From the UHGV virus genome UHGV-0180729: a DNA stretch of 44,771 nucleotides; one strand, written 5' to 3'. Positions 21,884 through 22,379 of this stretch are shown here, piece by piece. Source of the stretch: a virus. How positions within the stretch are numbered: position 1 is the first letter of the stretch; each line of letters opens with the position of its first letter. The translations under genes and the position numbers were made by a program. A model generated the notes under the pieces. That model did no database searches. It had not been told where the DNA came from and worked only from the letters and a program-made list of their open reading frames with translations.

Positions 21884-22270
21884 ATGAATCTTAAAGCAAC
21901 TGTCGTAGCGGGAGCTTGTTTCATCATCCTGGCCTACACCCACGGCATATATCAATACCGCAGCGGCTGGAGCGAAGGCCGGGCGAATCTCGTTTCGCAG
22001 CAACAGCAGAAAGCACGGGCTGAGTTATCGAAGAAAACACAACGGCAGCAGCAGGACGAATCGAAGGCCGCCGCCGCTGACAACGAAGGTAAGACGAAAT
22101 CAGAGGTAATTACACGTGAAGTCGTTAAGTACATTAAAACGCCTGGCCGCAGCATGTGCACTTTCGACGATGCTCGCGTCCTGCTCAAGTCCCGCGCCGT
22201 CGCAAACGCCAATTCCATCCCCGGATACGACGATGATGCAGCCGCCGTGCAAACTGGCCGCACCAAGTAG
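21884..22270 (+). CDS. Rz-like inner-membrane spanin (i-spanin)
   Basis: N-terminal TM segment (ATVVAGACFIILAYTHGIY), then Gln/Lys/Ala-rich coiled-coil region; contains an embedded +1-frame lipoprotein gene. Confidence 0.75.
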   Translation: MNLKATVVAGACFIILAYTHGIYQYRSGWSEGRANLVSQQQQKARAELSKKTQRQQQDESKAAAADNEGKTKSEVITREVVKYIKTPGRSMCTFDDARVLLKSRAVANANSIPGYDDDAAAVQTGRTK

Positions 22271-22379
22271 CGACGCTGACGAGGATTTAGCTATCGATGT
22301 TCAGAACGCAGAATGCGTACGGCAACTGAGGCTGAAAGTGTTCATGTTGCAGGATTACGTGAGGAATATTCTGGAATAG
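22116..22379 (+). CDS. Rz1-like outer-membrane lipoprotein spanin (o-spanin), embedded in and extending beyond the Rz-like gene
   Basis: Signal peptide with lipobox LAS-C (MKSLSTLKRLAAACALSTMLASC), Pro-rich mature part (SPAPSQTPIPSP...MMQPP). Confidence 0.75.
   Translation: MKSLSTLKRLAAACALSTMLASCSSPAPSQTPIPSPDTTMMQPPCKLAAPSSDADEDLAIDVQNAECVRQLRLKVFMLQDYVRNILE

Follow-up and report, generated by a model that had tools for sequence, protein, structure and literature searches.

A predicted two-component spanin encoded at 21884-22379

The virus genome UHGV-0180729, analysed as one stretch of 44,771 nucleotides (nt) and called the window hereafter, carries at 21884-22379 two overlapping plus-strand genes whose products very probably form a two-component spanin of the Jersey overlapped family. 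A spanin pair had been proposed at this place from the DNA letters alone, and the proposal is borne out: both proteins match Rz-like spanin families of the PHROG database, the rules for a transmembrane domain (TMD) and for a lipobox are passed, and the geometry of the two genes is conserved. Many GenBank records label the genes at the syntenic position as spanins. Judged by its sequence matches, the window is a Kagunavirus (Guernseyvirinae) genome. A megablast search with 21000-24300 matched 487 phage records, the best of them Kagunavirus (K1G/K1ind-like Escherichia siphophages) at 90-93% identity, with Salmonella Jerseyviruses second at 80-90%. The locus was compared across 11 annotated phages and 52 IMG/VR contigs.

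The first gene (21884..22270, plus strand) opens with ATG behind a Shine-Dalgarno (SD) sequence, AAGGAG, at 21874-21879, and encodes the 128-residue inner-membrane spanin (i-spanin). Its assignment draws on the open reading frame (ORF), the variation at third codon positions, the TMD and a match to PHROG 2536, 'Rz-like spanin', with an E-value of 2.8e-54; three other Rz-like PHROGs match more weakly. The protein begins with MNLK, followed by a 19-residue hydrophobic stretch, ATVVAGACFIILAYTHGIY (residues 5-23, encoded at 21896-21952), with a mean Kyte-Doolittle value of 1.59, so that a rule-based prediction agrees with the N-terminal membrane anchor originally suggested. In all 12 homologues, drawn from three genera, the N-terminus is hydrophobic although its sequence diverges. 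Cys92 is invariant in a ten-sequence alignment. For the periplasmic part, originally suggested to be a coiled coil, a single-sequence AlphaFold2 model shows no more than helices at residues 3-84 and 94-107, with low confidence (pLDDT, the predicted local distance difference test, of 60). Jersey-family i-spanins have been predicted as two helices joined by a beta-strand linker (Kongari et al., PMC6139136).

The second gene (22116..22379, plus strand) lies in the +1 frame of the i-spanin gene, starts with GTG and encodes the 87-residue outer-membrane spanin (o-spanin). An SD-like AGAGG, read directly from the sequence within the i-spanin gene (22102..22106), stands 9 nt upstream of the GTG, and relatives have GGAGG or AGAGG at the same spot. 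The predicted signal peptide (encoded at 22116-22181), MKSLSTLKRLAAACALSTMLAS, is followed by CSSPAPSQTPIPSP, with the lipobox LASC encoded at 22173-22184 and its cysteine at residue 23; residues 2, 8 and 9 are basic and the hydrophobic region (h-region) is uncharged. MKSLSTLKRLAAACALSTMLAS followed by CSS satisfies a lipoprotein rule of the PROSITE PS51257 type (Lys or Arg within the first 7 residues, an h-region without charge, a lipobox Cys), with Ser rather than Asp at position +2. The mature protein would have 65 residues, with 8 prolines among the first 28. A lipoprotein with a LAS-C lipobox and a proline-rich mature region had been expected in this frame, and it is recovered with each of these features.

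Sequence families and conservation point the same way. PHROG 1267 aligns with residues 8-86 of the o-spanin (E 5.1e-18) and PHROG 5672 with residues 41-87 (E 3e-30), and Cys45 and Cys67 are invariant among homologues. Signal peptides vary between Kagunavirus, Jerseyvirus and Cornellvirus (…LSTMLAS-C, …LLTLSA-C, …SFLLSG-C, …LLTLTG-C, …IIGITG-C), while the N-terminal basic region (n-region), the h-region and the lipobox Cys persist; the last is kept in 12 loci from the three genera despite sequence change. When every start codon in all six frames of the 44.8-kb window was scanned with the lipoprotein rule, it returned the o-spanin and two implausible hits, with mature parts of 29 and 11 residues, lying within other genes. 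Since the rule is so rarely satisfied, chance does not freely supply a signal of this kind. With no plausible lipoprotein signal in the window apart from that of the o-spanin, the scan also gives no rival spanin pair beside the endolysin gene, a finding that would have spoken against the original prediction, and no unimolecular spanin (u-spanin). A u-spanin of the T1 gp11 type likewise does not describe the o-spanin itself, the C-terminus of which (…KVFMLQDYVRNILE) is not hydrophobic, and there is no other convincing lipobox ORF in the window.

Overlap architecture and coding in two frames

The two genes overlap by 155 nt, and the o-spanin gene ends at 22379, 109 nt past the i-spanin stop (22270). 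The pair therefore belongs to the overlapped class, and the embedded Rz/Rz1 architecture claimed for it originally has to be given up. ORFs of 387 and 264 nt with a 155-nt overlap are kept exactly in 49 of 57 related loci. FSL SP-038 encodes the same two proteins with an overlap of only 8 nt.

The diversity at codon positions fits two coding frames. In the segment used by the i-spanin alone, diversity is highest at the third codon position of the i-frame (0.251, against 0.120 and 0.094), and in the 109 nt past the i-spanin stop it is the third position of the o-frame that is most diverse (0.256, against 0.090 and 0.034). Within the overlap, the i-frame dominates the pattern, which fits an o-frame signal peptide and proline-rich linker with loose sequence requirements there. 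The GTG at 22116 is the sole start that gives the o-spanin a signal peptide: the frame opens only two codons 5' of it, and the next ATG in the frame would leave just MLAS ahead of the Cys.

In many GenBank relatives the o-spanin is annotated as a protein of 47-48 residues starting at MMQPPC or MQPPC, with neither signal peptide nor lipobox. Such short annotations correspond to L001 4420-4563, L002 3817-3963, L003 1359-1502, L006 1380-1523, L009 1381-1524 and L186 1554-1700 in the coordinates of the compared loci.

Weighing the spanin assignment

Several observations weigh against the spanin assignment. The TMD of the i-spanin is only moderately hydrophobic, the TMD and lipobox calls both rest on rules, and the structure model of the i-spanin has the low confidence given above. 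In several Jerseyvirus homologues the lipobox reads LNGC, which fails the strict PROSITE pattern at position -2. The curated spanin models of Pfam and NCBIfam fail to match the pair, as do PDB sequences; Pfam Rz and Rz1 are not among the matches at E <= 1, the best of which is DUF2514 (E 0.03, below its cutoff). The pair therefore stands outside the lambda Rz/Rz1 sequence families. The literature yielded no experiment on any Jersey-family spanin, the published assignment being bioinformatic.

The silence of the curated spanin models leaves some room for the pair being a different envelope system, for example a lipoprotein for superinfection exclusion (T5 Llp- or Cor-like) that acts with a membrane partner and sits as a moron among the head genes of a phage that lacks spanins or uses another outer-membrane disruptor. 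The distance from the lysis cassette and the variable moron-like inserts that relatives have in this region would suit such a system, and phages without spanins exist (PMC6139136). We nevertheless regard it as highly unlikely, since the i-spanin matches four Rz-like spanin PHROGs and the o-spanin matches such families as well, an overlapped pair of a TMD protein and a lipoprotein with conserved periplasmic cysteines is the signature of a spanin, the pair is universally kept at this position in three genera, unlike morons, and the genome offers no other candidate in the six-frame lipoprotein scan. Still less credible is the possibility that the o-spanin is the short product from MMQPPC (22236 in the window), with the +1-frame stretch 5' of it non-coding. 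It would agree with the 144-147-nt coding sequences annotated in Bas70, Schulenberg, Golestan, SETP7, SE2 and fBC-Eco01, and PHROG 5672 spans only the residues that the short form would need. However, lacking signal peptide and lipobox, this product could not reach the outer membrane; the stretch 5' of the short start stays open and retains a Lys/Arg-rich n-region, a hydrophobic h-region and the lipobox Cys in 12 of 12 loci while its sequence changes; the alignment to PHROG 1267 extends well beyond the short form; and the SD-like sequence ahead of GTG 22116 also speaks against it. Wrong starts have been reported for 64 annotated o-spanins (Kongari et al., PMC6139136). In practical terms, the o-spanin start of deposited relatives can be corrected to a GTG or ATG about 41 codons upstream.

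With the pair read as a spanin, its mode of action can be sketched, the topology, complex formation and function being inferred largely by analogy with lambda Rz/Rz1. The i-spanin would be a type II inner-membrane protein with an N-terminal anchor and a largely helical periplasmic C-terminal domain. The o-spanin would be translated in the +1 frame from its own SD and GTG inside the i-spanin gene, cleaved by signal peptidase II ahead of Cys23 and lipidated on that residue; with Ser at +2, the Lol system would be expected to sort it to the outer membrane. The two proteins may bind through their C-terminal parts, span the periplasm and thread the peptidoglycan, as disulfide-linked homodimers for which Cys92 (i-spanin) and Cys45 and Cys67 (o-spanin) are candidate residues. 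After removal of the peptidoglycan by the holins and endolysin, whose genes lie 8 kb away, the complex would be free to act and would destroy the outer membrane, probably through fusion with the inner membrane.

Comparison with described spanin systems

Papers and GenBank annotations already describe the spanin pair, the overlap of its genes and their distance from those for holin and endolysin. Kongari et al. (2018, BMC Bioinformatics 19:326; PMC6139136) define a 'Jersey' family of 27 overlapped spanin pairs, including those of Jersey, SETP3, SE2, K1G, K1H and K1ind1-3, with a 155-bp overlap, polyglutamine stretches and constant o-spanin Cys45 and Cys67, and discuss a separated variant for FSL SP-031/038/049. 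The window pair shares with this family PHROG 2536 together with PHROGs 1267 and 5672, the 155-nt overlap, Cys45 and Cys67, a polyglutamine-rich first helix and the position between decoration and scaffold genes. It differs in nothing essential, its lipobox being LASC with the Cys at 23 rather than 22. Protein identity is about 90% to K1-type members, and 51-91% (i-spanin) and 43-90% (o-spanin) to ten family members.

The separation is noted for individual relatives too: the Schulenberg genome note places the spanins apart from holin and endolysin (PMC6763661), Golestan has its spanins at ORF7/8 and its lysis genes at ORF66-68 (PMC7203180), and the fBC-Eco01 paper reports spanins as gp11/12, with holins and endolysin near the genome end, likewise in Golestan. 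Schulenberg (MK931438; Microbiol Resour Announc 2019) shows 90.7% DNA identity to the window over the region, but has a minus-strand gene between its decoration gene and the leader described below, a lysis cassette without HNH gene and an o-spanin annotated with 48 residues.

Outside this family, lambda Rz/Rz1 provides the same combination of a type II inner-membrane protein and a small proline-rich outer-membrane lipoprotein in the +1 frame, with periplasmic cysteines. In lambda, however, Rz1 is wholly embedded and Rz/Rz1 directly follow S and R, whereas the window pair is overlapped and lies 8 kb from the endolysin gene; there is no similarity in sequence at the Pfam level. The P2 LysB/LysC pair sits in a lysis cassette, unlike the pair described here. 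As the prototype of the overlapped class (PMC6139136), it has in common with the window pair an o-spanin gene whose start lies within the i-spanin gene, in a different reading frame, and whose end lies past it. T4, the textbook case of unlinked spanin genes, resembles the window in that PseT.3/PseT.2 lie apart from the genes for holin and endolysin (PMC6139136), but these genes are separated rather than overlapping and belong to another sequence family.

Separation of the spanin genes from the holin and endolysin genes

The spanin pair lies between the gene for a Hoc-like immunoglobulin-like (Ig-like) decoration protein (21083..21541) on its 5' side and the scaffolding protein gene (22462..23166) on its 3' side, the neighbours that the original prediction had named. 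In annotated relatives the order is terminase, portal, head morphogenesis, Hoc-like decoration, two 'Rz-like spanin' genes, scaffold and major capsid, with holin-holin-endolysin at the opposite end of the conventional map. This placement of the spanins in the head module, apart from holin and endolysin, is conserved in Kagunavirus, Jerseyvirus and Cornellvirus.

In the window the lysis genes, covered as a set by PHROGs 2359, 2508, 99 and 33703/7, are all on the plus strand: holin 1 (12328..12636), holin 2 (12629..12901), an HNH endonuclease (12864..13412) and a GH24-type (lysozyme-type) endolysin without N-terminal hydrophobic segment (13409..13891). The end of the endolysin gene and the start of the i-spanin gene are 7,993 nt apart, in line with the distance of about 8 kb and the split by an HNH gene at 12.3-13.9 kb described originally. 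The HNH gene is inserted exactly between holin 2 and the endolysin and overlaps each by a few bases. Among 153 related records, one shares it (BUCT825, alone in spanning this stretch), and the others have holin-holin-endolysin contiguously. Immediately upstream of holin 1 is a gene for an HslV-family peptidase-like protein (11828-12268; PHROG 1040, E 1.4e-32).

At least four plus-strand terminator-like hairpins occur from the endolysin to the spanins, at 15915, 19283, 21547 and 21840. Given that the spanins have a conserved promoter of their own (see below), a transcription unit separate from that of the holins and endolysin, and shared with the scaffold and capsid genes, is plausible as a prediction. 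The spanin pair would then be the first cistron behind the promoter, a structured leader RNA and a long hairpin, followed by scaffold and major capsid, and from this place at the head of the unit the spanins are probably made with the late structural proteins. The location of lysis genes, spanins and capsid genes on one strand weighs against simply assuming the separate regulation that had been suggested. The single time-course RNA sequencing study of a Kagunavirus that was found puts the lysozyme and capsid genes both in a broad 'middle' class and leaves the spanins unreported (PMC12645636); per-gene spanin values are absent from that paper and its supplements.

A structured leader RNA upstream of the spanin genes

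The one new item beside the published spanin pair is a structured RNA upstream of it. It would be transcribed from a predicted sigma-70 extended -10 promoter at 21631..21659 (plus strand), composed of TTGACT, a 17-nt spacer ending in TGc, and TAAGCT. This promoter is below the threshold of a generic scan, but the motif T[TAG]GA[CT]T-N14-TGnTAnnCT is shared by 53 of the 55 different upstream sequences, which come from three genera, and has a single match in the window. In the fBC-Eco01 record, a 'host promoter' and a terminator are marked at corresponding places. Together with a hairpin at 21840-21859, this gives substance to the promoter-like element and hairpin that had been pointed out directly ahead of the spanin genes.

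The core of the leader RNA (21664..21780, plus strand) is predicted to contain a 5' hairpin (21668-73 paired with 21683-88) and a four-part hairpin at 21691-21755 with a GUAA loop, and includes an invariant CGGAAGGG at 21753-21760. In the Kagunavirus sequences alone, 98.4% of the alignment cells at paired positions can pair, with four compensatory pairs. A covariance model built from these sequences detects the approximately 60%-identical Jerseyvirus leaders with 39-45 bits (E about 1e-10) and gives two partial matches at 17 bits to Cornellvirus-type leaders, covering the inner helices and CGGAAGGG; this model misses three loci that diverge further. In the cross-clade alignment 95.4% of cells are paired, compared with 25-45% when the partners are slid, and 15 of 29 pairs are compensatory, counts that lean towards structure because the alignment was fitted to the model. 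Folding the Jersey clade independently with RNAalifold recovers the inner helices as well. When the three clades were aligned jointly with MAFFT, RNAalifold returned the apical hairpin only, owing to misalignment of the clades, and per-clade folds and covariance models were used instead.

The leader is better conserved than its surroundings: it is 96.6-99% identical to that of Jerseyviruses such as ER13 and VSt10, with the DNA of the decoration, spanin and scaffold genes at 79-87%. It is carried at 95-99% identity by 179 phage records and is always linked to spanin genes in the loci seen. Rfam 15 gave nothing at gathering thresholds across the whole window, and its best match near the locus at E <= 10 scored 16 bits against a threshold of 42 bits. 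Outside the Guernseyvirinae the leader was not found in a weak search of IMG/VR, where the pattern ACCGCGN{40,70}CGGAAGGG proved too permissive (120 stretches); of the 80 loci scanned with the leader model, one, a Kagunavirus, matched.

A 36-residue ORF at 21679-21789 does not hold up as a small protein. Frameshifts or truncations disrupt it in four of the compared loci (L003, L014, L015, L026), it has lost its start codon in two (L029, L036), and it has no counterpart in Jersey- and Cornell-type sequences; it is probably not a gene. Hypothetical proteins of 36-38 residues are annotated in relatives at this place, within the approximately 220 nt that separate the promoter from the i-spanin ATG, for example Bas70_0007, Schulenberg_008 and fBCEco01_09, and overlap the structured RNA, of which they are more likely a part, as non-coding sequence.

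A long hairpin at the i-spanin start

Downstream of the leader core, a long hairpin of 27 pairs is predicted at 21811..21883 (plus strand), ending immediately before the i-spanin start codon. Its apex is a GC-rich terminator-like stem (21840-21859) followed by TTTACTTATC, and at its base GUUUCU (21811-16) pairs with AGAAAC (21878-83) and UUU (21820-22) with GAA (21872-74), so that the i-spanin SD is enclosed. A model built from Kagunavirus alone detects the Jersey versions at 27-33 bits. In the alignment, which includes two reverse-strand self-hits, 93.4% of cells are paired, compared with 42-51% when the partners are slid, and 8 pairs are compensatory. Possible roles of the hairpin are those of a terminator, an RNase III-type site and a translational damper, and RNA structure probably dampens the start of i-spanin translation.

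The layout of the upstream region is compatible with three readings: a cis-acting limiter or timer of spanin translation by SD sequestration, an antitermination unit of the lambda pR'/6S or put kind at the head of the spanin-scaffold-capsid operon, and an independent small RNA of about 200 nt. One possibility, which we rate below an even chance, is an undescribed cis-regulatory RNA module, made of the promoter, the RNA of about 115 nt and the SD-sequestering hairpin, that fronts the Guernseyvirinae spanins and sets their amount or timing. Sequestration of the SD would possibly be relieved by processing, and the module might in addition govern how far transcription reads through into the scaffold and capsid operon. 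It would thereby act as a checkpoint, made of RNA, on the final step of lysis, or as a new late antitermination RNA of the put kind. If the RNA does regulate spanin or late-operon expression, it would represent a new class of phage regulatory RNA. A regulatory RNA would also give a testable reason for the spanins standing at the head of the scaffold-capsid transcription unit.

Somewhat more doubtful to us is that promoter, RNA of about 200 nt and hairpin make up a small-RNA gene, or a unit like lambda pR'/6S or HK022 put, acting mainly in trans on host targets or in antitermination of the whole late operon rather than being dedicated to the spanins. Much of the layout agrees with it. The promoter is conserved, only a few nt separate the predicted transcription start from the covarying structure, about 200 nt downstream of that start is a terminator-like hairpin whose tail is T-rich, and more such hairpins follow at 22418-36 and 24231-52; the degree to which the RNA outdoes its flanking genes in conservation also agrees. 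The put RNAs are two stem-loops just past a promoter (PMC9378689), ahead of terminators, a likeness of layout only, and the lambda pR'-6S RNA-tR' unit similarly consists of a promoter and a short structured or terminated transcript, followed by late or lysis genes. The match ends there, however, as the window element matches the HK022 put regions neither in sequence nor in structure and no Q-like gene is annotated in relatives. When the leader model (R1) was run against HK022 27.6-30.1 kb with filters off, the best score was 6.3 bits (E 0.45), giving no homology to putL or putR. The RNA belongs to no Rfam family, and the T-tract after the hairpin is poor in Jerseyvirus. The pairing of the hairpin with the ribosome-binding region of the spanin gene covaries, which points to a cis effect on spanin translation, and the element accompanies spanin genes in every locus seen.

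Other elements around the locus

Directly 3' of the decoration gene, a terminator-like hairpin (21547..21566, plus strand; GGCCCC-GAAA-GGGGC followed by TTTTT) was read directly from the sequence and is unlisted by the automatic scan; equivalent terminators are annotated in Ent1, Schulenberg and fBC-Eco01. Just 5' of the promoter -35 is a cluster of TATTC/GAATA half-sites (21579..21629), consisting of TATTCC, TATTCC, GGAATA and TATTCGAATA, which doubles as a minus-strand promoter-like site (TTTACA-18-AATAAT). A second GAATA/TATTC cluster, with GGAATATTC, GGAATAG and GGAATAATTTATTC, extends with TTGACA (22408-13) and a hairpin over 22363..22436 (plus strand), up to the region between the o-spanin stop and the scaffold gene, and cluster and hairpin are kept ahead of the scaffold gene in all genera. 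The two clusters (21579-21629 and 22363-22413) share the exact 11-mer TGTTGGAATAA, each ends at a TTGAC hexamer, and they bracket the unit of leader and spanins. They could be binding sites of a phage regulator or remnants of divergent promoters. No acceptable -10 was found for TTGACA 22408 as a sigma-70 promoter of the scaffold gene.

The hairpin of the second cluster (AAUCCGGG/CCCGGAUU, 22418-22436, plus strand), between the o-spanin and scaffold genes, has a stem that covaries, reading ACACCGGG/CCCGGUGU in Jerseyvirus. It is without a T-run, though Ent1 annotates a rho-independent terminator. Strong terminator-like hairpins in the same-strand late region lie at 8475-8495, 15915-15930, 19283-19298 and 24231-24252, and the first of these, taken as 8456-8511, weakly matches the hairpin model from 21810-21883 (20.8 bits).

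The slot from the decoration gene to the leader promoter (21542-21578 in the window) is a variable insertion site. The window has only the terminator there, and relatives carry differing minus-strand genes (L001 3489-3692, L002 2571-3092, L003 188-630, L005 91-630), among which is an annotated sliding clamp. Between its head-morphogenesis and decoration genes, the window has a second HNH endonuclease gene, a free-standing one (20456-21079), which is absent from Bas70 and present in Schulenberg.

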